Of a DNA stretch of 64,000 bases, positions 7,511 through 40,300 are shown piece by piece. A program made the position numbers and the translations under genes. Source of the DNA: Gammaproteobacteria bacterium (GTDB taxonomy: Bacteria > Pseudomonadota > Gammaproteobacteria > Tethybacterales > Persebacteraceae); contig OZ244916.1 of assembly GCA_965221835.1 (NCBI GenBank), positions 654,477 through 718,476 of the forward strand, read 5' to 3'. Numbering within the stretch: the stretch's first letter is position 1; each line of letters begins with the position of its first letter. The notes under the pieces were generated by a model. The model was not told where the DNA came from, did no database searches, and was given only the letters and a program-made list of their open reading frames with translations.

Positions 7511-7514
7511 TTTT

Positions 7515-23652: not shown

Positions 23653-23667
23653 TTTGCCTTTTCGGAG

Positions 23668-23714
23668 GCAACAAAAACCGGCGGGGATTCCGTTTCCCCG
23701 CCGTTTTTTGTTGC
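23668..23714. terminator. Bidirectional intrinsic terminator. It is identical to the hairpin at 11544-11582.
   Basis: The sequence GCAACAAAAACCGGCGGGGATTCCGTTTCCCCGCCGTTTTTTGTTGC forms an extended palindrome with A/T tracts on both sides. Confidence 0.7.
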
Positions 23715-24077
23715 ATTCGTCTCCCGATTCCATTTCCGCCCAATTTATCATTCCCGCGAACGCGGGAATCTATTATGAGAGACAAATTCGCGCTTTCACC
23801 TCGTTTTTTGCGAAAAAATGCGGAAATTTCAAATTTAATTTTCGCATAAAATTCGCGGGAATTTCAAACTTAATCTCCCTTCCCGCTTTCGCAAGAATGA
23901 CGAATTTTTTTCGTTCGCAAACGCGCGAATCTCTGCGCAAACAGTGGAAATTTTTGTTTCGCGGAATTTTCTTGGTCTTTGCAAATAAAAAAATAACGAA
24001 AACGTTTTTCGGTTTTTTGGGAAATTAAAAAAATTTCCGTTTTTGTCAAAAAACACGAAAATGCCGAAAAAAAATCG
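23715..24077. repeat. NIME-like repeat block made of dRS3 (ATTCCCGCGAACGCGGGAAT) and RS-like units.
   Basis: ATTCCC-N8-GGGAAT elements are present. RS-like units (gaaatttcaaatttaattttcgc...) are shared with the array at 56658-57776. Confidence 0.7.
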
Positions 24078-25166
24078 TCATTCCCCGCCGTCCGCATCGG
24101 CGAGGGCGTTTAGTACTTCGTCCAAATCGCCTTCTATTACGGCGGGGAGTTTGTACAGAGTTAAGCCGATTCGGTGGTCGGTGATTCTGCCTTGCGGAAA
24201 GTTATAAGTGCGAATTCGTTCGGAACGGTCGCCGCCGCCGACAAGTGCGCGGCGTTCGCCCGCTTCTTTTTCGCGGCGTTCGCGGCGTTTTTGTTCTGCG
24301 ACTCGCGCATGCAAAACCGCTAACGCGCGTTCGCGATTTTTGTGTTGCGAACGGTCGTCCTGACATTCAACAACCGCACCGGTCGGCAAATGCGTAATTC
24401 GCACGGCGGAATCGGTCGTGTTGACATGCTGTCCGCCCGCACCGGACGAACGAAAAGTTTCAATGCGCAAATCGGCGGGCGAAATATGCACATTGTCTTC
24501 GGGTGCGGATTCGGGCATTACCGCAACGGTCGCAACCGAAGTATGAATGCGTCCTTGCGATTCGGTATCGGGAACGCGTTGTACGCGATGCGCACCCGAT
24601 TCGTATTTGAGTTTTCCGTAGACGCCGCCGCCGCCGATGCGGGCGATGATTTCTTTGTAGCCGCCAATTTCACCTGCGGCGGATGAAACAATTTCGGCGC
24701 GCCATTTTTGCGATTCGGCGTATCGCGAATACATGCGAAATAAATCGCCCGCAAAAAGACACGATTCCACGCCGCCGACCGCCGCGCGAATTTCCAAAAA
24801 ACAACTGCGCGAATCGTTTTCCGATTCCGGCGCAAAAAGACGGCGCAAAGTTTTCGTTAAAGTTTCGCATTGCGCGACAAGGGCGTCGCATTCTTCGCCG
24901 GCGATTGCGCCGAGTTCGGGATCGTTTTGCATTTCGCGCAACTCGCAAATTTTGGTTTGCGCGGCGCGCCATTGCCGATATTTGTCCGTTGCGGGCAGCA
25001 GTTTTCCATATTCTTCCGATAACGCCTGCCATTCTTCGCGCCCGGGTTGCGCCGCCATTTTATTTTCCAAAATCGTCCGCCGCGCATTTAACGCATCAAG
25101 TTTTTCTTGCACTTTCGGCGGCAATATACGATTTCGCACATTTTGCAAAGAATCAGAATCTGTCAT
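24078..25166 (-). CDS. prfA: Peptide chain release factor 1.
   Basis: The translation contains GGQHVNTT and the RF1-type RTYNFPQGRITDHRI motif. It is 362 aa. Confidence 0.9.
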   Translation of the reverse strand: MTDSDSLQNVRNRILPPKVQEKLDALNARRTILENKMAAQPGREEWQALSEEYGKLLPATDKYRQWRAAQTKICELREMQNDPELGAIAGEECDALVAQCETLTKTLRRLFAPESENDSRSCFLEIRAAVGGVESCLFAGDLFRMYSRYAESQKWRAEIVSSAAGEIGGYKEIIARIGGGGVYGKLKYESGAHRVQRVPDTESQGRIHTSVATVAVMPESAPEDNVHISPADLRIETFRSSGAGGQHVNTTDSAVRITHLPTGAVVECQDDRSQHKNRERALAVLHARVAEQKRRERREKEAGERRALVGGGDRSERIRTYNFPQGRITDHRIGLTLYKLPAVIEGDLDEVLNALADADGGE

Positions 25167-25273
25167 TAAGCAATTGTATCAAAAATCCCACATCCGAAGT
25201 TGGTGTTTGATTCCCGCTTTCGCGGAAATGACGAGTACTTATTATTTCGCCCCCGCCGCCCGTCATTCCCGCA

Positions 25274-26599
25274 TTAGATATATCCGAGTTCGTGCAGCCG
25301 TTTGCGGGCGTTTTCCATTGTGCGCGTTGATTTAATGGTGTTGCACGAACCGCAAAGAAGTTGCAAATTTCCGTCCACATCCGGACCGCCTTTTGCGCGG
25401 GGAATAATATGATCTAAATGAAAATAACGCGGTTCAAAATGGTGTTTGCAAAGATTGCAATTACCCCCCTGTCGTCCGTACAAAATTTGGCGAATATCCC
25501 GGCTGCGGATTTGTTTATAATCGGTGCGCATCGGGCAGTCGTTTTTAATGTTGCGGTGATGCACTTTCCGCTCGCCTTCGCCGAGTTTGCCTTTTTCGGT
25601 TTCCGATTTCAGCCGGGCTTTTACCAAACTTGCCGCCTTTTCGGCAACATCAATTCCAATCCATTTTCGGTCCAATCTTTCGGCGGCGATGCAAGTTGTC
25701 GCGCAACCGCAAAACGGATCAATAACCAAATCGCCTTCGTTGGAGGATGCAAGAACGATTCTTTCCAAAAGCGCGAGTGGTTTTTGCGTCGGGTATCCGG
25801 TGCGTTCGGGGGAATTCGGACCGAATGTAATTTCCCACCAATCTTCCGGAACTTTTCCCGCCGAATGCCGTGCCGCCAATTTTTCGGGCGGATCCCCCTT
25901 CCATATTCCGGATCCTCCGCGATTTCTTTCGGGGATATTTTTCCGTTCGGGCATGCGGGAAAGTTTGTAAGGCACGCGAACGGAATCGGCGTTAAAAACA
26001 TAATTCTCCGTTTTGCTATACCGGAAAATTAAGTCATGTTTTCGCGGAAAATCTTTTTTTGCGCTGCTTGTTGACGCATAACACCAGACAATTTCGTTGC
26101 GAAAATTGTTGTCGCCAAAAACAATATCCATAAGAAGTTTCAGCGAATGCGACATCGTCGGGTCGCAATGCAAATAAATGCTGCCGGTCGGTTTCAGCAG
26201 TCGCCGCATTTCCATCAATCGCGCCGCCATAAACGATAAATACGCCATTTCCGCATTGCCAACGATTTCGCCCATCGTTTCCAAAAAGCGCACGATTTTT
26301 TTCGCCGTTGCGCCGTCTATCAGCGGATTCCCGTCCGCCGCCGCCGCAATCAATTCGTCAAACGCATACAACTCCGCGTACGGCAAATACGGATTTTTTT
26401 CGTCCGCCGCGCTGTCCCAACCCCAAATATCCTTAAATCCAAACTCGGCGGAACCGCCTTTTCCAATCGGAAAAACAAACTTTTTATTGAACGGCGGATC
26501 TAGATAAATTAAATCCACCGTTTCGGAATTCATCGCGCGCATCACCTCCAAATTGTCGCCAGTAAACAAAGTCCGATTTTCTATCTGTTTTTTACTCAT
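25274..26599 (-). CDS. DNA methyltransferase (beta-class N6-adenine/N4-cytosine family, DPPF motif) fused to a C-terminal HNH nuclease domain. This is copy 1.
   Basis: The translation contains DLIYLDPPFN (motif IV), then ERTGYPTQKP and VIDPFCGCATT (motif I), then C-terminal CNLCKHHFEPRYFHLDHIIPRAKGGPDVDGNLQLLCGSCN (HNH). The start is placed at MSKKQIENR, which has an RBS (aaaagga). Confidence 0.8.
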   Translation of the reverse strand: MSKKQIENRTLFTGDNLEVMRAMNSETVDLIYLDPPFNKKFVFPIGKGGSAEFGFKDIWGWDSAADEKNPYLPYAELYAFDELIAAAADGNPLIDGATAKKIVRFLETMGEIVGNAEMAYLSFMAARLMEMRRLLKPTGSIYLHCDPTMSHSLKLLMDIVFGDNNFRNEIVWCYASTSSAKKDFPRKHDLIFRYSKTENYVFNADSVRVPYKLSRMPERKNIPERNRGGSGIWKGDPPEKLAARHSAGKVPEDWWEITFGPNSPERTGYPTQKPLALLERIVLASSNEGDLVIDPFCGCATTCIAAERLDRKWIGIDVAEKAASLVKARLKSETEKGKLGEGERKVHHRNIKNDCPMRTDYKQIRSRDIRQILYGRQGGNCNLCKHHFEPRYFHLDHIIPRAKGGPDVDGNLQLLCGSCNTIKSTRTMENARKRLHELGYI

Positions 26600-26757
26600 A
26601 ACATTCCTTTTCAATTCCGATATCCGCAAAAACTAATTATACCCGAATCCCGCCGCCGTTAAATGGTAATCGTGCGGGGTGATTTTCATTGTTCATCATT
26701 TCCGTGGCGGGCGGAGTCGGGGGCTTAATGGTGGGAAGATTTGTTTTGGTCATTTTT

Positions 26758-27774
26758 TTATTCGCCGTGCAAAATTCGTGTTTCGCGTTTTTCCCACCAT
26801 AAGCAAAACTCGTGTACATGGCGGGTGATGATTTCGTCTGCTGCTGTTGTTGCCGCCCGTCTTGCTGTTTGCGATTGTTCGGCTTGTTTTCCTAACTGTT
26901 CTAGCGTGTAGACAAACGCGCCGGATAGTTTGGCGATTTCGGGTTCTAAATCGTGCGGGACGCCCAAATCGGCGAATACGATTGGCGTGCGGCGGATCAT
27001 TAATGCGTGTTCGGCGGCGCCTTTTCCGATAATCGGCAGCGGGCTGGCGGTTGCGGAAATGACGATGTCAAACTGCGGCAGCATTTCTGGTACGCGCGAC
27101 AATGCAATCATTTCGCCGCCCGCTTGTGCGGCGAGTTCTTCCGCGCGTTCGGGCGTTCGTCCGGCGACGGCGATTCGGCGAACGCCCCTTCCGGCAAAAA
27201 TCGGAATGCCGGAACGGGTCATATCTCCGGTGCCGATAAATAAAACCGAAAGGCGCGAAAAATCGGGGAAAATGCCCGCCGCAGCGCGCGCGACCAATCC
27301 GCTGTATGAAACCGAACGCCGTCCGATGTCGGTGCGGGTGCGCACTTCTTTGGCGGCGGCGAGGGATTTTTCTAACAGGCGATTGACGAAAACGCCGGAA
27401 GTTCCGGCATCGCGCGCGATTTGGGCGGCGCGTTTGACTTGTCCGGTTATTTCGGTTTCGCCCAAAATTTGCGATTCTATTCCGCTGGCGATGCAGAATG
27501 CGCGGCGGACTGCATCTTTTGCGCGAACGCAAAATAACGCATTTTCGCTGCCGTTTGCTAACCATCGCGCGACTTCGTCGGGGCGGTCGGTGAGGCAATA
27601 AATTTCGGTGCGGTTGCAAGTAGAAAGCACCGCCGCCTCGCTGGCAATTCCGGAAACGAGTTGACGCAATTTTTGGGCGGCGGAATCGGCGGAAATTCCG
27701 ATAACTTCGCGCAACGCCCGCGGCGACATCCGAAAATCCGCGCCGATAGAAAACAAGTTTGATATTTCGCCCAT
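26758..27774 (-). CDS. hemA: Glutamyl-tRNA reductase, apparently 3'-truncated. The product is 338 aa against about 415 expected.
   Basis: The translation contains LSTCNRTEIYC and NAD-binding motifs. The N-terminus aligns from MGEISNLFSIGADFRMSPRALREV. The protein ends at WWEKRETRILHGE, which is where the roughly 80-aa C-terminal dimerisation region normally continues. Confidence 0.75.
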   Translation of the reverse strand: MGEISNLFSIGADFRMSPRALREVIGISADSAAQKLRQLVSGIASEAAVLSTCNRTEIYCLTDRPDEVARWLANGSENALFCVRAKDAVRRAFCIASGIESQILGETEITGQVKRAAQIARDAGTSGVFVNRLLEKSLAAAKEVRTRTDIGRRSVSYSGLVARAAAGIFPDFSRLSVLFIGTGDMTRSGIPIFAGRGVRRIAVAGRTPERAEELAAQAGGEMIALSRVPEMLPQFDIVISATASPLPIIGKGAAEHALMIRRTPIVFADLGVPHDLEPEIAKLSGAFVYTLEQLGKQAEQSQTARRAATTAADEIITRHVHEFCLWWEKRETRILHGE

Positions 27775-27839
27775 CGCGTTAATTATACAAAAATATGCGG
27801 CACTTGCGGAAGAAGCAAAACGGCGGCACTTCCTCGCCC

Positions 27840-27950
27840 ATGACATTTTTCGGGTGAGAACAGCCGCAAAAGTTTACTGCTACAAAACCCGGCATTTTCC
27901 GCAACTGATAAAACGGGCGGCGTAAACTCCGCCTTTTGCGGGAATGAAAA
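27840..27950. repeat. Partial, diverged copy of the MITE-like element found at 41968-42118.
   Basis: The sequence is about 80% identical to the internal part and right end of the 41968-42118 element, in inverted orientation. The short translated ORFs share AENxGFCSSKLLRL. Confidence 0.55.
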
Positions 27951-27956
27951 ACAAGG

Positions 27957-28046
27957 CGGAGAGAGGGGGATTCGAACCCCCGAAGGGAGGGAAACTCCCT
28001 TAACGGATTTCAAGTCCGCCGCATTCAACCGCTCTGCCATCTCTCC
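27957..28046 (-). tRNA. tRNA-Ser (anticodon TGA).
   Basis: On the minus strand the sequence reads GGAGAGATGGCAGAGCGGTTGAATGCGGCGGACTTGAAATCCG..., with a long variable arm and a GGGGGTTCGAATCCCCC T-arm. The acceptor pairing is GGAGAGA/TCTCTCC. Confidence 0.85.
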
Positions 28047-28076
28047 GCGCGAATTTGTGTTAAAATACGCCTTTCC

Positions 28077-28152
28077 GCCGCCATAGCTCAGCCCGGTAGA
28101 GCAGCTGATTTGTAATCAGTTGGTCGGGAGTTCAAATCTCTCTGGCGGCACC
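28077..28152 (+). tRNA. tRNA-Thr (anticodon TGT).
   Basis: The sequence GCCGCCATAGCTCAGCCCGGTAGAGCAGCTGATTTGTAATCAG...GGGAGTTCAAATCTCTCTGGCGGCACC folds as a cloverleaf. U33 and A37 flank the TGT anticodon. Confidence 0.85.
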
Positions 28153-28157
28153 GGAAT

Positions 28158-28922
28158 TTACGATGCCGGACAACGCGCTGCGCTTAAAATTCGCCCGGTA
28201 TCCCCTTGTTGCAACCATACTGCGCAATCTTGCAAATCGGCGTCAAATGCGGGAATGTCTATATCTCGCACGCCGAAAGGCGCACTTTCCAAACGCGTAA
28301 CGACATTTGTGTTGTGCAATAACTTTCCTTTATTTTCGCCGGCGACGACATCCGTTTGTCGCATTCGCCAAAAAATCGCGTAATAAACTTTTGCAGCGGG
28401 CGGCAATGCGCCTTCCGCCCGAACTTTGTTGCGCCCCGAAAAACGAAAGCGAACAGACGGCGTTTCTGCTAATGTTTCGTCTATCGCGCCGGTAATTCTG
28501 CCGCTTTGGGTGCCGGACGCTTGTTTTTGCCCTTGAATAATCGCTTGCGGCGTATAAACGGAACGGGTATTGCGAATGCGAATGTTATAACCGCTTTGCC
28601 GTCTCGTATATGCCGCATCGGAAAACGGATCTTTCCAGACCGACCCGCCGTATAACAAATCGTCCCAATAATCCACATGCAATTCCAGCGGCAACGCGCC
28701 GGGATATGTCGCAATTTCTTCCGCCAGAACGCGTTCGGCGGGCGGGCAGGAATAACATCCTTGCGAAGTAAACAACTCCACAATTGCCGCCGGGGGCGCG
28801 AAATCTTCCGCAAATGCGGGAATTGTTGCGCACAATGCCGCCGCGATTGCCGTTTTGCGCATTGTTTTGCACATCGTTTTGCGCATTATTGCCGATATTT
28901 TTTTTGGTGTCGTTTCAGGCAT
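28158..28922 (-). CDS. DUF1223 family secreted protein with a thioredoxin-like CxxC motif.
   Basis: The translation contains ELFTSQGCYSCPPAE. A signal peptide and a strong RBS (ggagg) are present. Confidence 0.7.
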   Translation of the reverse strand: MPETTPKKISAIMRKTMCKTMRKTAIAAALCATIPAFAEDFAPPAAIVELFTSQGCYSCPPAERVLAEEIATYPGALPLELHVDYWDDLLYGGSVWKDPFSDAAYTRRQSGYNIRIRNTRSVYTPQAIIQGQKQASGTQSGRITGAIDETLAETPSVRFRFSGRNKVRAEGALPPAAKVYYAIFWRMRQTDVVAGENKGKLLHNTNVVTRLESAPFGVRDIDIPAFDADLQDCAVWLQQGDTGRILSAARCPAS

Positions 28923-29004
28923 GAATTTCCTCCGAAAGTATTATAATAGCCGAATGGTAAGTTATTATACGCGTAAACGATACAAATCGGAAAGGATATA
29001 AATC

Positions 29005-30414
29005 ATGCCCGCAAAAACTTCGGCGGCAAAAAAAACCGCCGCCAAAACCGCCGACAAACCGGCGAAATATAACAGCACGAGTTTGACCGCTTTTATGAGC
29101 GGATTGACTCGCCGCACGCCCGGCGAATCGGAGTTTCATCAGGCGGTACGCGAAGTCGCCGAAACGGTCGTGCCATACATTCGCCGACACGACAAAATGA
29201 CTCGCGCCATCATTATGGAACGAATGACGGAACCCGAACGGGTTTTTATGTTTCGCGTGTTGTGGGAGGACGACGACGGCAATGTCCGCCTAAATCGCGG
29301 CTATCGCGTTCAATTTAATAACGCATTGGGACCGTACAAAGGCGGTTTGCGGTTTCATCCGTCCGTCAATCTCGGCGTATTAAAATTTCTCGCATTTGAA
29401 CAAACTTTTAAGAACGCCCTCACCGGATTGCCGTTGGGTGCGGCAAAAGGCGGTTCCGATTTCAATCCGCGCGGAAAATCGGACGCCGAAATGCTCCGGT
29501 TCTGCAAATCTTTTATGCTGGAATTATTTCATCATATCGGTCCAGACATAGATGTGCCTGCCGGCGACATCGGTGTCGGCGAACGCGAAATCGGCTATCT
29601 TTTCGGGCAATACAAACGCATCACCGGCAAATTCGCTTCCGGCGTACTGACCGGCAAAGGATTGACTTTCGGCGGCAGTTTAATCCGCCGCGAAGCGACC
29701 GGTTACGGCACGGCATATTTCGCCGAAGAAATGCTGAACCGGCGCGGTGATTCGTTGCGGGGCAAAACTTGCACGGTATCCGGCAGCGGCAATGTCGCAC
29801 AGTTTTGCGCCCAAAAAATTATTCAACTCGGCGGCAAAGTAATGACAATGTCCGATTCCGACGGTTCCATAGAAGACCCGGACGGAATTGATGAAGAAAA
29901 ACTCGCGCACATTATGGAGTTGAAAACCGTCCAACGCGCACGCATTCGCGAATATACAAATCGCTATCGCCGTGCGCGTTATCACGCCGGAAAACGTCCG
30001 TGGGATGTCGCATCTTTCGCCGCTTTTCCGTGCGCAACGCAAAACGAAGTAGACGCCGCAGACGCCCGCCGTCTGTTGCGCAACAAATGTTTTCTGATGG
30101 CGGAAGGCGCGAATATGCCGACAACATTAGACGCCCTCGCCCTTTTGCGCGACAAAGTAATGATCGCCCCGGCGAAAGCGGCAAATGCGGGCGGAGTCGC
30201 CATTTCCGGTTTGGAAATGAGTCAGAACAGTTTGCGTTTGTCGTGGTCCGAAGAAGAAATGCAGACGCGTCTTCGCGACATTATGCGCCGCATTCATTCG
30301 CAATGCGTCCAACACGGCGGCAAACGCGGGCGCAAAGAAATTGATTATATCGCCGGTGCGAACATCGCCGGTTTTGTCCGTGTCGCGGAGGCGATGCTCG
30401 CGCACGGCGTTTAA
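29005..30414 (+). CDS. gdhA: NADP-specific glutamate dehydrogenase. With the ATG at 29005 it carries an Ala/Lys-rich N-terminal extension. An alternative start lies at 29095.
   Basis: The translation contains the GGLRFHPSVNLGVLKFL and GAAKGGSDFNP motifs. An RBS (aaagga) precedes 29005. Confidence 0.9.
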   Translation: MPAKTSAAKKTAAKTADKPAKYNSTSLTAFMSGLTRRTPGESEFHQAVREVAETVVPYIRRHDKMTRAIIMERMTEPERVFMFRVLWEDDDGNVRLNRGYRVQFNNALGPYKGGLRFHPSVNLGVLKFLAFEQTFKNALTGLPLGAAKGGSDFNPRGKSDAEMLRFCKSFMLELFHHIGPDIDVPAGDIGVGEREIGYLFGQYKRITGKFASGVLTGKGLTFGGSLIRREATGYGTAYFAEEMLNRRGDSLRGKTCTVSGSGNVAQFCAQKIIQLGGKVMTMSDSDGSIEDPDGIDEEKLAHIMELKTVQRARIREYTNRYRRARYHAGKRPWDVASFAAFPCATQNEVDAADARRLLRNKCFLMAEGANMPTTLDALALLRDKVMIAPAKAANAGGVAISGLEMSQNSLRLSWSEEEMQTRLRDIMRRIHSQCVQHGGKRGRKEIDYIAGANIAGFVRVAEAMLAHGV

Positions 30415-30495
30415 TATCGCGATGCGTTATCTCTTCATTTCCGGCGATTCCGAAAATTTTTCGGCGCATTTTATGGCGCGCAATCTTGCCGCATT

Positions 30496-31548
30496 TTGGC
30501 GGGATGCGCTTTCCGGTCGTCTGCAAAATTGAACGCAAAACGGCGGCTGGCGTGGTTTGTCGTATTGCTGGCGGTGTGCGCCGCCGGTTATGGCGGCTGG
30601 CGACATTATCAAAGCGCGCTTTTTGAGGCGATGCTTGCCCGTCCGCTGGCGGCGCAAATGACAATTGAAATTCCGTCCGGCGCATCTTTGCGCGACATTG
30701 CCGCCGCCGCATCGCAATCGGGTGCGCCGTTGTCGGCTACCGAATTTATTCTCGCGGCGCGGCGGATGAATGTTGCCGCTAAATTGCAGGCGGGATATTA
30801 CGAGTTTATGGCGGGCGAATCGGCGCGCGATATTTTGCTGGCATTCGCCGCCGGAAAAGTCGCTCCGGCGTTGCGATTTACTATCGTGGAAGGAATCACT
30901 TACCGCGATTTGCGCGAAAACTTGCGCGCCGATTCGCGTTTGATGCAAAAACTTCCGCAAATGAATGAAGAAGAAATCCGGCGCGAAATGGAAAGCGAAA
31001 ACGGTCTGGAAGGCGTTTTTTTGCCGGAAACTTATTTTTTCAATCGCGGCGATTCCGATTTGGATATTTTGCGGCGGGCGCGGCGCGAAATGCAAAAAAC
31101 ATTGCAACCGCTATGGGAAAAACGACAAGACGGCGGATTATTTAATAACCGTTACGAAGCGTTAGCACTCGCATCCATCGTAGAAAAAGAAACCGGCGCG
31201 GCGGAAGAACGTCCGTTAATCGCATCAGTTTTTGCAAACCGTTTGCGGCGGGGAATACCGCTGCAAGCCGACCCGACTGTGATTTACGGACTCGGCGAAA
31301 CATTTGACGGCAACTTAACACGCGCGCATTTGCGCGACAAAAAAAATCCCTACAACACTTACGCGCGGCGCGGCATAACGCCGACTCCCATCGCGTTGCC
31401 GGGAAAAGATGCAATCGCTGCCGTTTTGAATCCGCCGGAAACGGATTATTATTATTTTGTCGCAAGCGGCGGCGGGCGACATGTTTTTTCTAAAACTTTG
31501 CGCGAACATAACAACGCAGTCAACAAATATCAGCGGCGGCGAAAATAA
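30496..31548 (+). CDS. mltG: Endolytic murein transglycosylase (YceG family).
   Basis: The translation has an N-terminal transmembrane segment and a YceG-like domain. It is followed by tmk-holB-tatD, as in the conserved cluster. Confidence 0.85.
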   Translation: MAGCAFRSSAKLNAKRRLAWFVVLLAVCAAGYGGWRHYQSALFEAMLARPLAAQMTIEIPSGASLRDIAAAASQSGAPLSATEFILAARRMNVAAKLQAGYYEFMAGESARDILLAFAAGKVAPALRFTIVEGITYRDLRENLRADSRLMQKLPQMNEEEIRREMESENGLEGVFLPETYFFNRGDSDLDILRRARREMQKTLQPLWEKRQDGGLFNNRYEALALASIVEKETGAAEERPLIASVFANRLRRGIPLQADPTVIYGLGETFDGNLTRAHLRDKKNPYNTYARRGITPTPIALPGKDAIAAVLNPPETDYYYFVASGGGRHVFSKTLREHNNAVNKYQRRRK

Positions 31549-32186
31549 TGCGCGGCGTTTTTGTCAGTTTTGAAGGAATGGACGGCGCCGGAAAATCCAC
31601 GCAACTTAAAATGTTGGCGGCGCGTTTGCGCGAACGCGGCGTAAAAGTTTTAGAAACGCGCGAACCCGGCGGCGATGCAACTGCCGAAAAACTCAGACAA
31701 ATTGTGTTGGACGCCGAAGGCGGTTTGGACGGCGCAACCGAAACTTTATTGATGGCGGCAGCGCGATGCGAACATGTCATTCGCCGAATCCGCCCCGCTT
31801 TGTCGGACGGCGAATGGGTGTTGTGCGATCGGTTCAGCGATTCGACTTTCGCCTATCAGGGCGGCGGGCGCGGCGTTTGTCGCGAATGGATTCGGGAAGT
31901 TTTGCGCGAAGCAGAAAAAAATATCGCACCCGACATTACATTTTATTTGCAAGCAAGCGCGCGTTCGGCGGGGCAACCTTTGTTGGCGGCGGGCGATAGT
32001 TTTGAAAATCAAAATGGCGATTTTTATTGCGCCGTAGAATCGGAATACAAAAAATTGAAAAAACAAAATCCGAAACGCATCTCTGAGATTCGCGCTTTTG
32101 TCGGCAACGCACGGCGCGAACGAAAAGAAATCGCCGAAGAAATTTACGCCGCTGTTCTAAAACAATTTTCGCACAAACTGCCATGA
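31548..32186 (+). CDS. tmk: Thymidylate kinase.
   Basis: The translation begins MRGVFVSFEGMDGAGKSTQ. Confidence 0.9.
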   Translation: MRGVFVSFEGMDGAGKSTQLKMLAARLRERGVKVLETREPGGDATAEKLRQIVLDAEGGLDGATETLLMAAARCEHVIRRIRPALSDGEWVLCDRFSDSTFAYQGGGRGVCREWIREVLREAEKNIAPDITFYLQASARSAGQPLLAAGDSFENQNGDFYCAVESEYKKLKKQNPKRISEIRAFVGNARRERKEIAEEIYAAVLKQFSHKLP

Positions 32187-33109
32187 TTTATCCGTGGCAC
32201 CGACAAACATTAAAAGAAACCGCGTTGGTACCGGCGACTCTGTTGCTCGGCGAAGAAGGCGACGGGCGCGATACATTGGCGTTGGCGTTGGCGGCGTCTT
32301 TTGCGGGCGCAGAAGAAAACGCAAATATCAATTCGCTCATCGGCAATTTAACTGCAATCAAAAAAAGCGAATCGTCCGCGAAAGAATGGTTTTTGGATAA
32401 AAATACCGACATTATGGCGGTGCGTCCGGATCAGGAAATTATTCCCGTAGATGCCGTGCGGCGGGTGATTGAGTTTTGCGCGTTGACGCCGATTGCGCTC
32501 GCCCGCCGTGCGGTCGCGATTTTGCGCGCCGAGTGTTTGAACGCCGCCGCCGCAAACGCCTTATTAAAAACTTTGGAAGAACCTGCCGAAGATAAAATTT
32601 TAATTCTTTCGGCGCGTTCGTCTTCTTTATTGCCGCCGACAATTACGAGTCGCTGTCGCATTGTTATCGCGCCCCGCCCCGCCGCCGAAGATGCACGCGA
32701 ATGGGTGATGCAACACGGCGGCACAGATTCCACTCTCGCATTTTGCGGCGGCGCACCGATTGCCGCAGCGACAACGGACGAAAACAAAATCGGGGAAGCC
32801 GCGGCACATTTTGCGGCAGGCAAAAACATCAACATTCACGCCGCGGCGCAAACAATGGCAAACTTTGACGGCTGGCTGGATTGTTTGCAAAAATGGATAG
32901 CAGATGGTGCGCGGGCGGCGGCGGGACTTTCGTGCCGCTATTTTCCGGGCGTTGAAAAACGGCAAATCGCATTGTGCGACAATCCGTTGCGATGGCTGGA
33001 TGCGTACGCCGCCCTAATTAAAAAACGTCGCCTCGTCAATCATCCGCTGGCGGCGGATTTATTTATCAAAGAGATTTTATATGATTTCCGAAAAATGTTT
33101 TTGGATTGA
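32183..33109 (+). CDS. holB: DNA polymerase III delta-prime subunit.
   Basis: The position in the tmk-holB-tatD cluster and the AAA-like N-terminus support the call. It is 308 aa. Confidence 0.75.
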   Translation: MIYPWHRQTLKETALVPATLLLGEEGDGRDTLALALAASFAGAEENANINSLIGNLTAIKKSESSAKEWFLDKNTDIMAVRPDQEIIPVDAVRRVIEFCALTPIALARRAVAILRAECLNAAAANALLKTLEEPAEDKILILSARSSSLLPPTITSRCRIVIAPRPAAEDAREWVMQHGGTDSTLAFCGGAPIAAATTDENKIGEAAAHFAAGKNINIHAAAQTMANFDGWLDCLQKWIADGARAAAGLSCRYFPGVEKRQIALCDNPLRWLDAYAALIKKRRLVNHPLAADLFIKEILYDFRKMFLD

Positions 33110-33875
33110 TTCGCATTGTCATCCGCATTTTCCGCAAACCGGCGGCGACATCTCCGCGGTGCGAAATGCCATGCGCGAAAACGGAGTCGCGTCTGCGTTG
33201 GCGGTGGCGACCGGCGGAAAAGAATGGGAAACAGTGCGCGAACTGGCGCGCGATTATCCGGGCGTATTTTACGCCGCTTGCGGCGTTCATCCGCTCGCCG
33301 ATGCAGATGAAAAAGATGATGAAAAAAGTTTAACCGCCGCATGCGAAGACAAAACGGTGTTGGCGGTCGGCGAAACCGGTTTGGATTTTTTTCGCGGTGC
33401 AGAAAGCGAAACAATGCAACGGCGGCGATTCGCGGCGCACATTGCAACGGCGCGCCGTTTGCAAAAACCGCTGATTATTCACACTCGCGATTCGCTGCCG
33501 CAAACTTTGGATATGTTGCGCGCCGAAAACGCGCGCGATTGCGGCGGCGTTTTGCATTGTTTTACCGGCGATGAAAAAGAAATGCGGGCGGCAGCAGACA
33601 TTAATTTTGTCGTCTCTTTTTCCGGCATTTTAACTTTTCGCAAATCGGATGAAATGCGTCGGGTCGCGGCGGCGGCGGCGGCGGACGGTTATATGATTGA
33701 AACCGATGCGCCGTATTTGTCGCCCGCACCGCATCGCGGAAAAATCAACACGCCCGGTTATGTGCGATTTGTCGGCGAAACAATTGCCGCCGCGCGCAAC
33801 ATTTCCGCCTCGCAAGCGGCGGCGGAAAGCGCGGCAACATTCCGGCGATTGTTCAAACCGGAAAACGCGCAATGA
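33081..33875 (+). CDS. tatD: TatD-family metal-dependent DNase/hydrolase (YcfH).
   Basis: The translation contains WIDSHCH and other TatD motifs. The start overlaps the holB end. Confidence 0.85.
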   Translation: MISEKCFWIDSHCHPHFPQTGGDISAVRNAMRENGVASALAVATGGKEWETVRELARDYPGVFYAACGVHPLADADEKDDEKSLTAACEDKTVLAVGETGLDFFRGAESETMQRRRFAAHIATARRLQKPLIIHTRDSLPQTLDMLRAENARDCGGVLHCFTGDEKEMRAAADINFVVSFSGILTFRKSDEMRRVAAAAAADGYMIETDAPYLSPAPHRGKINTPGYVRFVGETIAAARNISASQAAAESAATFRRLFKPENAQ

Positions 33876-34747
33876 TGCGGCGCGGAGTTTTATTGGCGGG
33901 CGGCGCAAACACGCGATTGTATCCGGCGACATTGGCAACGGCGAAATCGCTACTACCGATATACGACAAGCCGCTGATTTATTATCCGCTTGCGTCATTG
34001 ATGGATGCGGGGGTGCGCGAAGTTTTGATTATCGCCGCGCCTGCGCATCTCGAATCGCACCGCCGCCTTTTCGCGGACGGCGCAAAATGGGGAATGCATT
34101 TTTCATATTTGCCGCAAGAAAAACCGCGCGGAATCGCGGACGCATTTATACTCGGCGCGGATTTTATCGGCGGCGAATCGTCCGCGCTGGCGTTGGCGGA
34201 CAATATCCATTGCGGCAACGGCATGCGAAAAATGTTGCGACAAGCGGCGGCGCAAACAGATGGCGCAACGGTGTTCGTCCGGTGCGTAAAAGATCCGGAA
34301 CGATTCGGCATTGCAGAATTCGGCGAAGACGGACGGGTGTCGGGTTTGGAAGAAAAACCGGAAAATCCCAAATCGCCTTTTGCCATCACCGGAATATATT
34401 TTTACGATTCGCAAGTTTGCGATATTGCGGCGAATTTGTCGCCGTCTGCGCGCGGCGAGTTGGAAATTACCGATGTCAATCGCGAATATTTGCGGCGCGG
34501 CGAATTGCGGGCGGAAAAAATGCCCCGCACCGCCGCATGGTTTGACGCCGGCACGCCCGACAGTTTAACGGAATCGGCGAATTTCATTCGCAAAACGCAA
34601 ATGCGTAAACAAAACATTATCGCCGCTCCCGAAACAATCGCTTTCCGAAATAAATGGATTACGCGCGAAGAACTCCGCCGCCTCGCCGCCGCCCTCGGCA
34701 AAACCGAATACGCCGCCGCCTTACAAAAAATCGCCGAAAACGAATAA
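33872..34747 (+). CDS. rmlA: Glucose-1-phosphate thymidylyltransferase.
   Basis: The translation contains GGANTRLYPATLATAKSLLPIYDKPLIYYPL, the RmlA signature. Confidence 0.9.
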   Translation: MMRRGVLLAGGANTRLYPATLATAKSLLPIYDKPLIYYPLASLMDAGVREVLIIAAPAHLESHRRLFADGAKWGMHFSYLPQEKPRGIADAFILGADFIGGESSALALADNIHCGNGMRKMLRQAAAQTDGATVFVRCVKDPERFGIAEFGEDGRVSGLEEKPENPKSPFAITGIYFYDSQVCDIAANLSPSARGELEITDVNREYLRRGELRAEKMPRTAAWFDAGTPDSLTESANFIRKTQMRKQNIIAAPETIAFRNKWITREELRRLAAALGKTEYAAALQKIAENE

Positions 34748-34793
34748 AACTTTCACCCGCCCCTTTTCCATTCCCGCGAAAATTGGGCGAGAA

Positions 34794-34930
34794 GATAAAT
34801 TTTTTTTTCGAACATTTTCGGATAAATTAAATTTGCACCATTTCCGCAACTCGTTTTTTATAGATAAATTTTTTTCGGACATTTTCGGATAAAATTAAAT
34901 TTGCACCATTTCCGCAACTCGTTTTTTATT
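34794..34930. repeat. Direct tandem duplication of a 68-bp unit. The two copies carry T9 and T7 homopolymer tracts.
   Basis: Two near-identical units read gataaat(T7-9)cg(a/g)acattttcggataaa(a)ttaaatttgcaccatttccgcaactcgtttttta. They are followed by a TATAAT box at about 34947. Confidence 0.8.
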
Positions 34931-34957
34931 CGCGGCGAAATTTATTATAATAGCGAA

Positions 34958-35135
34958 ACCACATCACGCGAGATCTTTCCGACTCTGTCGGGTGGCTCGT
35001 GAATACAATACCCGATAACGGAGGGAATAATTAACCCGCCGGGGGAATAAACGGGGACATTCAGGAAGGTCTGCGTGTGATGTGGTAATCCTCCCGACTT
35101 TTTGGGGGACTTTGTCATTACCGCAAAGGACTACT
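34958..35135 (+). promoter_or_regulatory. Long structured 5' leader of the second MTase-HNH gene. A long-range stem (ACCACATCAC at 34958-34967, GTGATGTGGT at 35067-35076) encloses about 100 nt. The leader shows partial sequence similarity to the leader of copy 1.
   Basis: A 10-bp perfect long-range inverted repeat is present, with internal hairpins (CCGACTCTGTCGG). The motifs CCGACTC and TAACGG.GGG.ATAATT also occur in the leader of copy 1, which spans 26757-26600 on the minus strand. Confidence 0.4.
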
Positions 35136-36461
35136 GTGAACCAAGCGCAAATAGAGAACCGGACTCTGTTTACCGGCGACAATTTGGAAGTGATGCGCGC
35201 CGTCAATTCCGAGACGGTGGATTTGATTTATCTGGATCCGCCGTTTAACAAAAAATTCGTTTTTCCGATTGGAAAAGGCGATTCCGCCGAATTCGGATTT
35301 AAAGATATTTGGGGATGGGATAGCGCACCGGATGAAGGCAATCCGTATTTGCCGTACGCGGAGTTGGCGGCGTTTGACGAACTTGTGGCGGCGGAAGCGG
35401 ACGGCAATCCGTTAATAGACCGCAAGATGGCGAAAAACACCGTCCGCTTTTTGGAAACGATGGGACAAATCGCCGGCGAAGCGGAAATGGCGTATTTGTC
35501 GTTTATGGCGGCGCGTTTAATTGAAATGTGGCGGTTGCTGAAACCGACCGGCAGCATTTATTTGCACTGCGACCAAACAATGTCGCACTCGCTTAAACTT
35601 TTGATGGATATTGTTTTCGGTGAAAATAATTTCCGCAACGAAGTTATTTGGTGTTATGTCGGTGGCGGAAACGCAAAAAACGCTTTTAACAAAAAACATG
35701 ACACGGTCTTTTTTTACACGAAACAAAAAAATCGTTCGTTTTTTAATTGGAAAGATGTTGCTATGCCATATAATAATATTCCGCTTACGGCGCAATGGCG
35801 CAAAGGGTTTACAAACAGACAAGAAGCGGAAAAACGCGCCTTGGCAAAATATAAAGATGGCAAAGCGCGATATGATTGGTGGACGGATATTCCATCTTAT
35901 GGAACGGCTACGCGGAATCCCGAAAGAACCGGCTACCCGACTCAAAAACCGGTTTTGCTTTTGGAAAGAATCATAAAAGCGTCCAGCAACGAAGGCGATT
36001 TTGTTCTTGACCCGTTTTGCGGATGCGCGACAACTTGCGTTGCCGCCGAAAGATTAAACCGCCATTGGTGCGGAATTGATGTTGCCGAAAAAGCGGCGCA
36101 ACTCGTTCGCGCCCGCCTTCTTGCCGAAACAAAACAAGGCAAACTCGGCGACAAAGTACCGCAAGTGCATCACCGCGATTTCGGCAAAGGCGATTTTCCG
36201 ATGCGCACCGATTTGGGCGATTCGCGCAGTAAAAATATCCGCATAGTTTTGTTTGGAAATCAGGAAGGCAAATGCAATCTTTGTAAACGCCGTTTTGATT
36301 TGCGCGATTTTGAGGACGATCATATTATTCCGCGCAAAAAAGGCGGACCGGATGTTGACCGCAATTTGCAATTGCTTTGCAGTTCGTGCAACCGAATTAA
36401 ATCCACGCGCACAATGGAACAAGCCCGCAAACGACTGCGCGAATTGGGATACGCCGCTTAA
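35136..36461 (+). CDS. DNA methyltransferase (DPPF, beta-class) fused to a C-terminal HNH nuclease. This is copy 2, with a GTG start.
   Basis: It is about 70% identical at the protein level to the 25274-26599 product. The N-terminal 200 aa are near-identical, and the DNA is about 85-90% identical there. HNH motif: CNLCKRRFDLRDFEDDHIIPRKKGGPDVDRNLQLLCSSCN. An RBS (aaagga) lies 5 nt before the GTG. Confidence 0.8.
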   Translation: MNQAQIENRTLFTGDNLEVMRAVNSETVDLIYLDPPFNKKFVFPIGKGDSAEFGFKDIWGWDSAPDEGNPYLPYAELAAFDELVAAEADGNPLIDRKMAKNTVRFLETMGQIAGEAEMAYLSFMAARLIEMWRLLKPTGSIYLHCDQTMSHSLKLLMDIVFGENNFRNEVIWCYVGGGNAKNAFNKKHDTVFFYTKQKNRSFFNWKDVAMPYNNIPLTAQWRKGFTNRQEAEKRALAKYKDGKARYDWWTDIPSYGTATRNPERTGYPTQKPVLLLERIIKASSNEGDFVLDPFCGCATTCVAAERLNRHWCGIDVAEKAAQLVRARLLAETKQGKLGDKVPQVHHRDFGKGDFPMRTDLGDSRSKNIRIVLFGNQEGKCNLCKRRFDLRDFEDDHIIPRKKGGPDVDRNLQLLCSSCNRIKSTRTMEQARKRLRELGYAA

Positions 36462-36500
36462 AACGGAATCGGATTTACGCGGCGGGAAATTCCGATTTTT
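36462..36500 (+). terminator. Intrinsic terminator: GGAATCGG ... CCGATTCC hairpin followed by T5.
   Basis: A hairpin and a T-run lie immediately after the stop of the MTase-HNH copy 2. This is a convergent gene end. Confidence 0.55.
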
Positions 36501-36503
36501 CCA

Positions 36504-37319
36504 TTAGTTTTCGTGGCGGGATTTTAGGGTTTCTTCCAAACTTTTTAGGCGGGCGGAAATGTCGGCGAGTTGTTCGTCGGTTGTCGGCGAATCGTCTTCC
36601 TCTTTCATCATTCGTTCGTGCGCTTCCTGCATTACATTAATCACCACGCCGATCATCATATTGAGAAAAACAAACGCAGAAAGAAAAATAAAACTGATAT
36701 AAAAAATCCAACTCAACGGATATTCCACCATCGTCTCATACATCACATCCGTCCAATCTTCCAAAGTTGCAACGCGAAAAAGTGTGAGCATCGCTACGCC
36801 CACATCGCCCCACAATTCGGGATTGACCGGCGCAAAAAATAAGTTGCCCGCCGCAGCGTAAATATAAAAAATAATGAACATCATCAGCGCGATATACGAC
36901 ATTCGCGGCAAAGATGCCAGCAACGATTCCACCATTAAGCGCAGTTGCGGGACGAAAAAAATCAAACGCATCACGCGAAACAAGCGCAAAAGTCGCGCCA
37001 AAAGCGCGTATTCGCTTTCGTCTACCGGAATGAGAGAAGCGACGACGACAATGAAATCAAATATATTCCAGCCGCGCCGCCAAAAATTCCGCCAGCCGTC
37101 CGCCAGATAACGCACCGAAATTTCGGCGACAAAATATAAAGTCACCAAAAAATCCAACGCCTGCAACGCCACTTGCGCGGTTTCGGGAATGTCGTAAGTT
37201 TTTGCGCCGACCGCGAACGCCGACAACAAAATAACCGCCACCGTAAACCATTCAAATAAAGTATTGTGCCGCAACGCGCGCAGCGCATCCCGCCATTGCA
37301 CAAATTTATTTTGCGGCAT
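36504..37319 (-). CDS. Voltage-gated ion channel (NaChBac-like, single 6TM domain).
   Basis: An S4 segment with Arg at every third position (LLRLFRVMRLIFFV) and a pore motif (TLEDWTD) are present. It is 271 aa. Confidence 0.7.
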   Translation of the reverse strand: MPQNKFVQWRDALRALRHNTLFEWFTVAVILLSAFAVGAKTYDIPETAQVALQALDFLVTLYFVAEISVRYLADGWRNFWRRGWNIFDFIVVVASLIPVDESEYALLARLLRLFRVMRLIFFVPQLRLMVESLLASLPRMSYIALMMFIIFYIYAAAGNLFFAPVNPELWGDVGVAMLTLFRVATLEDWTDVMYETMVEYPLSWIFYISFIFLSAFVFLNMMIGVVINVMQEAHERMMKEEDDSPTTDEQLADISARLKSLEETLKSRHEN

Positions 37320-37334
37320 TGTCCGACAAAAAAA

Positions 37335-40300
37335 TCAGGCGACTCTGACGGATTCCATTTCCATCATCGCGCGGCGATATTCGTGCGGCAGTACTTTGAC
37401 GAATTTCATCCGGCAGGAATTCCAATCCGCCAGCACCGCCCGCGCCTTGGGACTGCCGGTATGCAAAATATGTTTTTCCAGCATATCGCGAACGATTTCC
37501 ACATCCGGACGACCGAGATGTTGCCCCGGACCGGGCGCGGCAGTCAGCGGTTCCAATGAAACCATATCCATATTGCACATCCGCGCAAAACGCGCGTGTT
37601 CGTCAAAAATATATGCCACGCCGCCGCTCATGCCCGCCGCAAAGTTGCGCCCGACATCGCCCAATACCAGCACCGTGCCGCCGGTCATATATTCGCAACA
37701 ATGATCGCCCGCATGTTCTACCACCGCATGCGCGCCCGAATTGCGCACCGCAAAACGCACACCCGCCGCACCGCGACAATAGCATTCGCCGCAAATCGCC
37801 CCGTATAACGCCGTGTTGCCGACAATCGCATTGTCGCCGTCCGCACCGCGCGAAGACGGCGGCGGAAATATCGCCAAAACGCCGCCCGACAATCCTTTGC
37901 CGACATAATCGTTCGCCTCGCCGCACAAACAAATCGTCATTCCGCGCGCGGCGAATGCACCAAAACTTTGTCCGGCAACTCCGCGTAAATTAATGTGAAT
38001 GGTATCCGGCGGCAATCCGGCATGTCCGCGGCGGGCGGCGATGGCGTTTGCAATCATCGCGCCCGCCGTGCGGTCGGTGTTTTTAATTTCGTCATTTATG
38101 ATAACTTTTTCGCCGTGCATAACCGCCCGTTCGCAACGCGCAAGCCATTTTTGATCAATCGCATTTTGCAATGCGTGTTCTTGTTTTTGGATATTGCGGC
38201 GCGCATATTCCGGCGGTGCTTGCGGCAACGCCAACACCGGCGACAAATCCACCGCCGCGCTTTTCCAATGTCCGCCCCGCCGCCGCCGCAACAAATCGGC
38301 GCGCCCGACAATATCGTTTAGTTTGCGAAATCCCATTTCCGCTAACAATCGCCGTACTTCTTCGGCAACAAAGAAAAAATAGTTGACGACATGTTCGGGT
38401 TTGCCCGCAAACTTCGCGCGCAATCTTTTGTCTTGAGTCGCGATGCCGACCGGGCAAGTATTGAGATGACACTTGCGCATCATAATGCATCCTTCGGCGA
38501 CAAGCGGCGCGGTGGCGAATCCGAATTCGTCCGCGCCCAATAACGCACCGATAACGACATCGCGTCCGGTTTTAATTTGCCCGTCTACTTGCAAACAAAC
38601 GCGCCCGCGCAAATCGTTTAATACGAGCGTTTGATGCGTTTCGGATAATCCCAACTCCCACGGCGTACCGGCGTGTTTGATGGACGACAGCGGACTCGCA
38701 CCGGTGCCGCCATCGTGTCCGGCGATGGTGATATGATCGGATTTTGCCTTTGCAACGCCCGCCGCAACGGTGCCGACTCCGCAACGGGAAACGAGTTTTA
38801 CGCTTACCTGCCCGCGCGGATTTGCACATTTCAAATCGTAAATCAGTTGCGCAATATCTTCTATGGAATAAATATCGTGATGCGGCGGCGGCGAAATCAA
38901 TCCGACTCCCGGCACCGAATGTCGAACGCCCGCAATCGCGTCGTCTACTTTGTGTCCGGGCAGTTGTCCGCCTTCGCCCGGTTTTGCGCCTTGCGCGATT
39001 TTAATTTGCATCATATCGGCGTTGGCGAGATATTCAGCGGTTACGCCGAATCGTCCGGACGCTACTTGTTTGATGGCGGAACGCATAGAATCGCCGGACG
39101 GCAGCGGGACAAAACGCGCCGCCTCTTCGCCGCCTTCGCCCGTGTTGGATTTGCCGCCGATGCGATTCATCGCAATCGCCAATGTGGTGTGCGCCTCGCG
39201 CGAAATGGAACCGAACGACATCGCGCCGGTGGAAAAACGCCGCACAATTTCCGCCGCCGATTCCACTTCTTCCAAAGCGACGGGTTGTTTTGCATCGACA
39301 ATTTCCAGCATACCGCGCAATGTCATTCGCTTTTCGTTTTGGATATTTATGTTGTCGGCGTATTCGCGATATTTTTCGTCACCGCCGCCGCGCACAGCGT
39401 GTTGCAATGCTGCAACAGTTTGCGGCGTCCACAAATGCGATTCGCCGCGAATGCGATAGGCGTAATCGCCGCCCGCATCCAAAGAATCGTCGCCGGAAAT
39501 AGATTCCGCACCGTACGCCGATTCGTGCAAGCGAAATGTTTCGCGCGCAACTTCCGCCGCCCCCACGCCGTCAATTTGCGAAACCGTGCCGCAAAAATAC
39601 TCGTCTACAAAATCGCGCGCGAGTCCGACTGCTTCAAAAATTTGCGCGCCGCAGTACGATTGATAAGTCGACACGCCCATTTTTGACATTGTTTTAAGAA
39701 GCCCTTTTCCCGCCGCGCGACGGTATCTTTGAATCCGTTGACGCGGCGACATTGCAGACGATTTGCGCACCGGAATCGCCGCCGCCAAATCATAAGCAAG
39801 CCACGGATAAATCGCTTCCGCACCATAACCCGCCAATACCGCAAAATCATGCACTTCGCGCGCCGCGCCGGTTTCGGCGACAATTCCCGCACGAAGTCGC
39901 GCACCATTAGCGACAAGATGATGATGCACCGCCGCCGCCGCCAAATAAACCGGCACGGCAATTCGGTCTTCGCCCGCCGCACGGTCGGACAAAATTAAAA
40001 TGTCGCATCCGTCTTCGCACACCGCCCGCAAAGCGGCATCGCGCAAATCGCGTACCGCCTTTTCCATTCCCGCCTCGCCCGCCGCCACCGCCCATGTAAA
40101 ATCCAACACCCGCGTACCAGAATGCGCGCGCAACTTCGCAAACTCTTCGGGCAACAATATCGGCGATTCCAGCGCGATACACGAAGTTTCCGGCGCATCC
40201 AGCGGACGAAATAAATCGGGACGTCCGCCGAGAAATGATTTCAGCGACATCACAACTTCTTCGCGAATCGGATCAATCGGCGGATTGGTCACCTGCGCAA

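Follow-up and report, generated by a model that had tools for sequence, protein, structure and literature searches.

Restriction-modification (R-M) genes are known for allelic substitution and for the diversity of their target recognition domains (TRDs) (Furuta et al. 2010, PMC2853133). The minimal mobile elements of Neisseria, as described in one account (PMC3787668), are different cassettes that lie between the same flanking genes, hold no mobility genes and are exchanged by homologous recombination in the flanks, and at the dam/drg slot of the same genus a methyltransferase gene and the gene of a methylation-dependent endonuclease alternate (PMC4269198). Here we describe two paralogous genes, MT_L and MT_R, each encoding a methyltransferase joined to an HNH nuclease domain (MTase-HNH), in a 64,000-nt stretch of DNA (hereafter the window; contig OZ244916.1, positions 654,477 to 718,476, assembly GCA_965221835.1) from an uncultured bacterium labelled Gammaproteobacteria. 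We regard it as fairly probable that the two genes are independent, strain-variable cassettes for single-chain methylase-nucleases with different TRDs, which would act as R-M-like defence or selfish genes and be exchanged via their flanks. The findings combine a common MTase-HNH architecture, a turnover of the minimal-mobile-element type and an extended leader that resembles the small RNA (sRNA) family sRNA-Xcc1.

Domain architecture and putative recognition domains

MT_L (25274..26599, minus strand, ATG start) lies between the prfA promoter and prfA, inside the hemA-prfA-prmC string, and MT_R (35136..36461, plus strand, GTG start with AAGGA upstream) lies between rmlA and an ion-channel gene. 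Both reading frames are intact, each with 1326 nt and 441 residues, and the two proteins share 305 of 446 aligned residues (68%, BLASTP). Using Pfam, the methylase family PF01555 (N6_N4_Mtase, gathering cut-off 26.7 bits) was matched by MT_L with an E-value of 1.5e-49 (169.4 bits) and by MT_R with 2.9e-45 (155.4 bits), and the family PF01844 (HNH, cut-off 21.4 bits) with 3.7e-12 (46.6 bits) and 1.1e-13 (51.5 bits), respectively, all four above the gathering score. The HNH domain of MT_L occupies residues 381-425 (25325..25459, minus strand) and carries the pattern CxxC...DH...N...CxxC, that of MT_R (36273..36407, plus strand) keeps the conserved columns, and the catalytic His, the Asn and the two CxxC zinc pairs are present in both copies. 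In an alignment of 40 sequences the HNH residues C381, C384, D396, H397, N411, C416, C419 and N420 were invariant, as were the methylase motif IV (DPPF, residues 34-37) and motif I (DPFCGCATT, residues 294-302), and among 122 members motif IV (DLIYLDPPFN), GYPTQKP, motif I (DPFCGCATT) and the HNH signature were conserved in at least 95%. The family columns with at least 90% conservation (n=110) are all kept by MT_L and in 109 cases by MT_R, the exception being I170V. The invariance of the HNH catalytic residues across the family implies selection for nuclease activity.

The order of the motifs is that of the beta class, with motif IV followed by the variable segment 176-262 and then by motif I (FxGxG). 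The AlphaFold model of MT_L (pLDDT 78.8, pTM 0.80; residues 217-232 forming a low-confidence loop) was matched by Foldseek to M.RsrI (E 3.3e-17), M.BceJIV, CcrM and M.MboIIA, with E-values of 3e-17 to 6e-15 and target TM-scores of 0.52-0.76, while the HNH domain resembled a small stand-alone HNH endonuclease and a group II intron maturase (4h9d, 6me0). The proteins are thus like these beta-class methyltransferases in motif order, in PF01555 and in predicted fold, but differ from them in a C-terminal HNH domain of ~100 residues, a ~50-residue insertion after motif IV and the lack of an adjacent partner restriction gene, and are ~20% identical to the solved structures. Judged by their sequences, both are composed of a beta-class N6-adenine-type methyltransferase core, a swappable central domain and a C-terminal HNH domain, with predicted activity. 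This is a large family: E was below 1e-10 for every one of the 8000 candidates scored, so that there are at least 8000 metagenome matches, and its hosts include Gammaproteobacteria, Bacteroidota and Planctomycetota.

The most variable region of the family comprises residues ~200-260, between the halves of the methylase core, where beta-class enzymes have their TRD. The putative TRD of MT_L (residues 176-262; 25814..26074, minus strand), the part of highest entropy in the 122 members, and that of MT_R (residues 176-260; 35661..35915, plus strand) are 23-33% identical to each other, compared with 83-97% in the N-terminal part, so that the TRD-like divergence of the central domains anticipated in the original prediction, a note made from the window's sequence, was found. 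Outside its own cluster, the MT_R segment reaches no more than 38% identity to any sequence. The MT_L segment shares 72-79% identity with its counterparts in P0033, P0034 and P0037, proteins only ~50% identical overall, and 62% with that of P0052, a protein with the same methylase N-terminal part and an MT_L-type TRD in which a T5orf172/MUG113 nuclease replaces HNH; to go by P0052, the nuclease module is predicted to be swappable as well. A third paralog, P0016 (439 residues; L044 5001-6320, also seen in L041-L043), lies ~190 kb away in the same circular 1,999,211-bp genome, closely flanked by moaE and the gene of a low-molecular-weight phosphatase, and is preceded by a short hairpin leader. 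Its putative TRD is 13-26% identical to those of MT_L and MT_R, and the values among the three paralogs of this one genome range from 13 to 30%. Because of the divergence at the TRD position, the modular exchange and the unrelated TRDs within one genome, it is plausible that MT_L and MT_R differ in specificity.

Characterised Type IIG enzymes have ~900-1000 residues, an N-terminal PD-(D/E)XK nuclease and a gamma-class methylase. The single-chain R-M enzymes of Types IIC and IIG, such as MmeI, BcgI and Eco57I, resemble MT_L and MT_R in uniting nuclease and methylase in one polypeptide, in having an exchangeable TRD, and in that paralogs or alleles differ mainly in the TRD; the proteins described here differ in their length of 441 residues, beta-class methylase and C-terminal HNH, and it is the domains that suggest the likeness. 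The arrangement of a classical two-gene Type II R-M system was not found, the neighbours being prfA and hemA on the left and rmlA and the ion-channel gene on the right.

Strain-variable content of the two sites

The strain-level set consisted of 13 sequences, namely the window and 12 public long-read metagenome contigs ~98% identical to it, which were found by exact-protein look-up and come from three metagenome samples. The right junction could be read in the window and 11 of the 12 contigs, one contig stopping short of it, which left 12 sequences informative for presence or absence at both sites. Both genes are accessory, and INDEPENDENTLY so: 4/12 carry both, 2/12 only MT_L and 6/12 only MT_R.

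On the left, the hemA|prfA slot (window 25250-26640; about 5000-7800 in each of L011-L020) is hypervariable among these ~98%-identical strains and was found with six contents, MT_L or one of five other cassette types. The alternatives to MT_L are two ankyrin-repeat genes; a T5orf172 protein (PADLOC PDC-S57, E 2.5e-45; strain L012, 6698-7402) with small open reading frames (ORFs); a 585-residue TnpB/Cas12f-like gene; and two sets of ankyrin and DnaJ-like genes, of which the one in L016 includes a gene for a 154-residue REase_II-like protein. RAMA is a domain associated with adenine methylation, and the T5orf172 protein of the slot has a weak match to it (22 bits, threshold 35.2). The alternation of MT_L with a protein having this sub-threshold match may be likened to dam/drg, as a parallel only.

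Across the seven strains with MT_L, a block from 25251 to 26657 contained 0 variable sites in 1407 nt, whereas the same strains had 25 (prfA) and 50 (hemA) variable sites per 1100 nt, or 2.3-4.5%. This invariant block reaches only 23 and 58 nt beyond the ORF. The 100% identity of the MT_L cassette in seven strains with variable flanks indicates that it has recently spread. A promoter-like sequence read from the DNA, TTTAAC-16 nt-TATAAT (26636..26663, minus strand; TATAAT at 26636-26641), stands in the conserved flank, and the MT_L, ankyrin and T5orf172 cassettes start within a few bases of one point just downstream of that TATAAT; by this placement they probably ride on a host promoter. At the 3′ junction of the MT_L cassette lies a degenerate inverted pair (25222..25272) of the genome's repetitive extragenic palindrome (REP)-like repeat (GTCATTCCCGC). 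The palindrome, ATTCCCGC-N4-GCGGGAAT, is present in eight exact copies in the window, with none expected by chance, seven of them arrayed at 56.7-57.7 kb (56750-57700) and another at 23750-23769, and fits the Neisseria dRS3 pattern ATTCCC-N8-GGGAAT.

On the right, the MT_R unit (34947..36503, plus strand), present in 10 strains, is composed of most of a -10 box, a leader, the gene and a 42-nt tail; unlike MT_L, MT_R has its own -10 box (34946-34951). In the two strains without MT_R, ~150 nt of unrelated sequence take the place of the unit. Variable sites amount to 1.2% over the MT_R leader and gene (35000-36400) compared with 3.1-4.5% in the flanks, and the low G+C (46-49% in both MTase-HNH genes, 50-56% in their neighbours) together with the reduced diversity of both genes points to recent acquisition. 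Just upstream of the unit, a tandem repeat of ~64-68 nt (34798..34929, plus strand) occurs in 1, 2, 3 or 4 copies depending on the strain. Within each copy is a TTGCAC motif resembling the -35 region of homologous units; expression might therefore be tuned by the copy number. The strains without MT_R keep the tandem repeat, which suggests loss by deletion. A simple promoter scan called neither of the proposed promoters, at the left slot or at MT_R, because their -35 boxes are weak, and its terminator-like matches were not above shuffled expectation; the promoter and attenuator roles are for these reasons kept here as inference.

In other genomes the homologs always stand alone amid housekeeping genes, and the loci are unrelated (for example frr|dnaG; a hypothetical gene next to aldehyde dehydrogenase|phosphoglucomutase; acpP|lutA; moaE|phosphatase), and no integrase or transposase was found beside them at the homolog loci examined. 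These features are like those of minimal mobile elements in that the content between the same flanking genes varies at both sites among strains of ~98% identity, and in that the MTase-HNH gene is the sole gene of the MT_L and MT_R units, with no mobility gene beside it, the exception to the likeness being the one alternative cassette with a TnpB-like gene. They differ in that the slot lies inside the hemA-prfA operon behind a promoter-like site, that several of its occupants encode nucleases, and that the host is an uncultured bacterium in which exchange by transformation and through the flanks would have to be supposed.

The enzymatic activity, restriction-like role, flank-mediated exchange and leader function that we infer would fit together as follows. 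Strains of one species would gain, lose or replace each copy on its own, the likeliest route being DNA transfer followed by homologous recombination in the conserved flanks. MT_L would travel as a leaderless ORF with its ribosome-binding site; it settles behind a host promoter-like site in the hypervariable hemA|prfA slot, and its spread is very recent. MT_R would travel complete, bringing its own -10 box and a structured leader that probably gates translation of the potentially toxic nuclease. Each protein would methylate its own recognition sequence and nick or cut unmodified DNA, and the result would be a compact R-M-like defence or selfish gene whose paralogs differ in specificity.

Several points weigh against such independently exchanged R-M-like cassettes. 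Literature searches found no paper characterising an MTase-HNH fusion, and PADLOC matched the generic methylase part only. The comparison contigs all come from the three metagenome samples and are all consensus assemblies. The "empty" right site keeps what appears to be the upstream part of the promoter, so that it may once have been occupied and have lost the unit by deletion. A nuclease and a methylase made together could kill a naive host, and MT_L is without the leader that might help. Finally, the sharp edges of the MT_L block fit a nuclease-driven, homing-like spread as well or better, because flank-mediated exchange should drag more of the flank.

Two further variable regions were observed in these strains. 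One, at 22800-24100 between prfA and prmC, holds differing sets of small ORFs (106+144, 131 or 134+167+148 residues), none with a Pfam match, which may be toxin-antitoxin-like cassettes; the window's 226-residue ORF at 23348-24028 also has no Pfam match. The other adjoins fpg (mutM), where strain ctg52286 (L011 1-1605) carries an SfiI-like restriction gene and a separate 329-residue N6_N4 methylase and other strains carry miaA and a 215-residue ORF, so that fpg marks another variable R-M slot.

The structured leader of MT_R

MT_R is preceded by a 183-nt structured 5′ leader (34953..35135, plus strand), which is conserved upstream of seven homologous MTase-HNH genes in other genomes and was not found upstream of MT_L, P0016 or more distant homologs. 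The covariance model built from the window leader found all homologous leaders at full length with 35-70 bits. In the alignment, which was fitted to the covariance model and is thereby biased towards the modelled structure, 96.1% of cells were paired, compared with 76.5 ± 1.7% in shuffles and 40-47% when the partners were slid, and 22 of 34 pairs were changed on both sides, compared with 11 ± 2 when shuffled and 5-10 when slid; 0/500 shuffles reached the observed values. Stem A (34959..34975) forms a 17-bp stem with A′ (35068..35085), with compensatory changes in 16 of the 17 pairs. An independent check agreed with this pairing: cognate A:A′ duplexes averaged -27.0 kcal/mol and non-cognate ones -13.1 ± 5.3 kcal/mol. 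These results indicated that the leader structure is supported by covariation.

Other pairings in the leader gave a more varied picture. An alternative pairing of A′ with the segment near the Shine-Dalgarno sequence (35126..35130, plus strand) is strong in four leaders (L021, L023, L025 and L027) and weak in the window leader, at -16.6 kcal/mol no better than non-cognate. A terminator-like hairpin lies at 35091..35108 (plus strand). Helix B (34987..34995, plus strand), which with its partner B′ (35090..35098) makes up the Xcc1-like core helix, can pair in 90.3% of cells with 1 double change, and 99/500 shuffles reached the observed pairing; covariation support for B-B′ as a pseudoknot or closing helix was accordingly not found, and this helix cannot coexist with A-A′.

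The leader core resembles the Rfam family RF02221 (sRNA-Xcc1). It scored 22.8 bits, below the gathering score of 53; related leaders scored 30-35 bits and a true member (L036) 64.2 bits. The weak match surfaced only in a 301-nt scan, while an E-value scan of 24000-37500 returned nothing in the leader. A search of viral contigs for the leader core gave 0 matches, and a metagenome scan gave 11 loci, comprising one true MTase-HNH leader (L031), two Xcc1-like leaders before other genes (L027, L035), two standard sRNA-Xcc1-type elements (L032, L036) and six others that are probably chance matches. The likeness consists in the core GUCGGGnGG...AAUAnAAnACCCG...GGGGAAU...CCnCCCGAC and in the ability to form the closing helix of that core. 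The MT_R leader differs in being ~2x longer, with a 26-nt hairpin insertion, in its extra 17-bp covarying stem A-A′, which is incompatible with the Xcc1 closing helix, and in being the 5′ leader of a methylase-nuclease mRNA, compared with a free-standing 88-nt sRNA.

Reported members of sRNA-Xcc1 precede the toxin gene symE in integron cassettes (bioRxiv 10.1101/2025.06.18.660453) and an ORF6N gene in APSE phages (PMC7313666), and the family is also known from a genomic island of Xylella (PMC12189769). Known members thus share with the MT_R leader a mobile context, and at least one of them precedes a DNA-damaging toxin gene. By analogy with these contexts, the leader probably acts in cis as a switch, restricting or postponing translation of a nuclease that could be harmful. 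The link of such a leader to MTase-HNH genes is new, with no earlier connection.

Competing explanations and what the cassettes may mean

The strongest competitor, which we hold to be possible and distinctly less probable than independent R-M-like cassettes, regards the two genes as selfish genes of the homing type: HNH would cut alleles that lack the gene or the methylation, repair would copy the cassette into the slot and the methylase would protect the carrier. Its extension to the left slot, of about the same doubtful standing, takes hemA|prfA as a site at which nuclease-encoding cassettes displace one another. The zero diversity of MT_L within close edges and between differing flank haplotypes would be expected of such a process, but repeated recombination can also give low diversity with sharp edges. 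The nearly common boundaries of the MT_L, ankyrin and T5orf172 cassettes favour homing, as does the occurrence of family members as lone genes in a wide range of intergenic sites; against it, the boundaries are nested between cassette types and not fixed at one site, and the various insertion sites show no evident target sequence in common. Nucleases are encoded by several of the alternative occupants (T5orf172, TnpB/Cas12f-like and the 154-residue REase_II-like protein), yet the ankyrin and DnaJ-like occupants are without one. P0052, with the same methylase part and MT_L-type TRD fused to T5orf172/MUG113, and the structural likeness of the HNH domain to a stand-alone endonuclease and an intron maturase also suit homing, while cleavage by HNH is itself a prediction. 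A wider form of this idea, on which we place rather less weight, is that MTase-HNH proteins are widespread, self-protecting homing-like nucleases competing with other nuclease cassettes (T5orf172-RAMA, TnpB and a small REase) for promoter-proximal slots such as hemA|prfA, and that the Xcc1-type fold is a general translational gate or timer before DNA-damaging genes of mobile cassettes (symE, ORF6N, MTase-HNH).

It is improbable that the proteins are orphan, regulatory or repair methylases of the CcrM kind in which HNH has some other role, such as nicking for repair. CcrM and M.BceJIV, which they resemble in sequence and fold, are orphan or regulatory methylases, no separate restriction gene is adjacent, and MT_L sits inside a housekeeping operon. 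Both genes, however, are strain-variable and assort independently, which is unexpected for a core regulator; the three paralogs of one genome have TRDs that are unrelated, the catalytic residues of HNH do not vary within the family, and low G+C with reduced diversity indicates recent acquisition.

The remaining alternative concerns the arrangement of the pair. The two genes are divergent, their 5′ ends directed towards the inner segment and their transcription running outward; the original prediction had them facing outward, as they do, and also toward each other, which they do not. A repeat finder recovered a 534-nt inverted repeat, far above chance, whose left arm (26077..26610) and right arm (35125..35658) each comprise the 5′ third of the gene and its ribosome-binding site, are 84% complementary and lie 8514 nt apart, and weaker inverted arms (217 nt at 79%, 179 nt at 82% and 66 nt at 73%) link the 3′ parts of the paralogs. 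The inverted pair of ~1.3-kb paralogs flanking an 8.5-kb segment was thereby confirmed as two intact genes with inverted arms, and 26600-35135 is exactly the interval between the two start codons. The strong 5′ similarity also held, at a measured DNA identity of 83-84%, not the claimed 85-90%. The inner segment (26600..35135) contains hemA, tRNA-Ser(tga), tRNA-Thr(tgt), DUF1223, gdhA, YceG/mltG, tmk, holB, tatD and rmlA, as had been listed, with the two tRNAs the sole Rfam matches at the gathering threshold in the whole window, and is collinear in every strain seen.

Recombination within inverted repeats of paralogous specificity genes is familiar from the Type I hsdS shufflons (pneumococcal ivr/SpnD39III and the hsd loci of Mycoplasma pulmonis). 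Shufflons of this kind have a dedicated recombinase and/or near-identical repeats, silent partial copies and short segments, and both orientations coexist. MT_L and MT_R, by comparison, are complete and separately expressed genes with 84% repeats, around 8.5 kb of essential genes, in one orientation and with no nearby recombinase. It was proposed that the segment is invertible or that the copies undergo gene conversion, that is, that RecA recombination between the paralogs inverts the 8.5 kb and swaps 5′ parts and promoters, or else homogenises the two copies; we now think this very unlikely. The proposal has in its favour the genuine 534-nt repeat with the additional 79-82% arms, the fact that a crossover between the arms would leave both genes in frame, and a longest perfect match between the arms of 31 nt, with further exact runs of 27 and 22 nt, which are near the minimal length that RecA needs. 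Nevertheless, a divergence of 16% cuts RecA-dependent homologous recombination by orders of magnitude, and no recombinase gene, site-specific or other, was present among the genes called within 10 kb in the window and contigs. The inverted orientation was seen in 0/13 sequences, as consensus assemblies, at the left junction (prfA-prmC side) and in 0/12 at the right (ion-channel and gltB side). The order hemA-(cassette)-prfA-prmC at the left junction is the canonical ancestral operon order, common to all strains, so that no net inversion endpoint lies there. Of the features that would mark an invertible segment, the bounding inverted repeats are thus present, and neither the second orientation nor a recombinase or near-identical repeats were found.

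The sequences of the paralogs likewise carried no trace of exchange between them. A crossover in the arms is expected to yield an L/R chimera ~95% identical to MT_L, and none is on record, since the 90%-identity cluster of MT_L consists of one sequence, on seven contigs. No MT_L-derived tract was found among the 16 polymorphic sites of the 10 MT_R alleles, and MT_L itself is monomorphic. Over its N-terminal 175 residues MT_L shares 88% identity with P0002 and 86.7% with P0004, compared with 85.7% with MT_R; because this part is closer to other homologs, the 5′ similarity reflects family-wide conservation and not L/R homogenisation. Gene conversion between the copies was in this way found neither by segment-wise nearest relatives nor by polymorphism tracts. 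Inversion, had it held, would have meant that a block of essential genes can be flipped in a new way, and the evidence removes a false lead. A composite transposon, with two mobile genes carrying the segment between them, was rejected because the inner segment and its position are unchanged in strains that lack one copy or the other. In our reading it is incidental that the two genes stand inverted around these 8.5 kb of housekeeping genes.

Two observations on the arrangement stand apart. The plus-strand GC skew is mostly positive inside the segment (27000-35000; mean about +0.03) and negative in both flanks, and mostly tracks gene orientation, hemA being the exception; a reading of this skew as the trace of an old inversion was rejected on the canonical hemA-prfA-prmC order common to all strains. 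An unrelated 1.73-Mb genome (L040, 1-1332 and 4001-5239) has two divergent MTase-HNH genes 2.7 kb apart, which bracket ccmE, a glycosyl hydrolase gene and a small ORF. Inverted MTase-HNH pairs are therefore not unique to the window, and their presence in a distant genome indicates that such pairs arise easily where copies are many.

If MT_L and MT_R are single-chain R-M enzymes, their family would supply new specificities as well as small programmable methylase-nickase scaffolds. The panel of strains with only the left gene, only the right gene or both is a natural experiment for assigning methylation motifs to each gene with long-read data that already exist. The covarying leader, in turn, ties the poorly understood sRNA-Xcc1 motif to the control of nucleases and toxins on mobile DNA and gives it a testable function.

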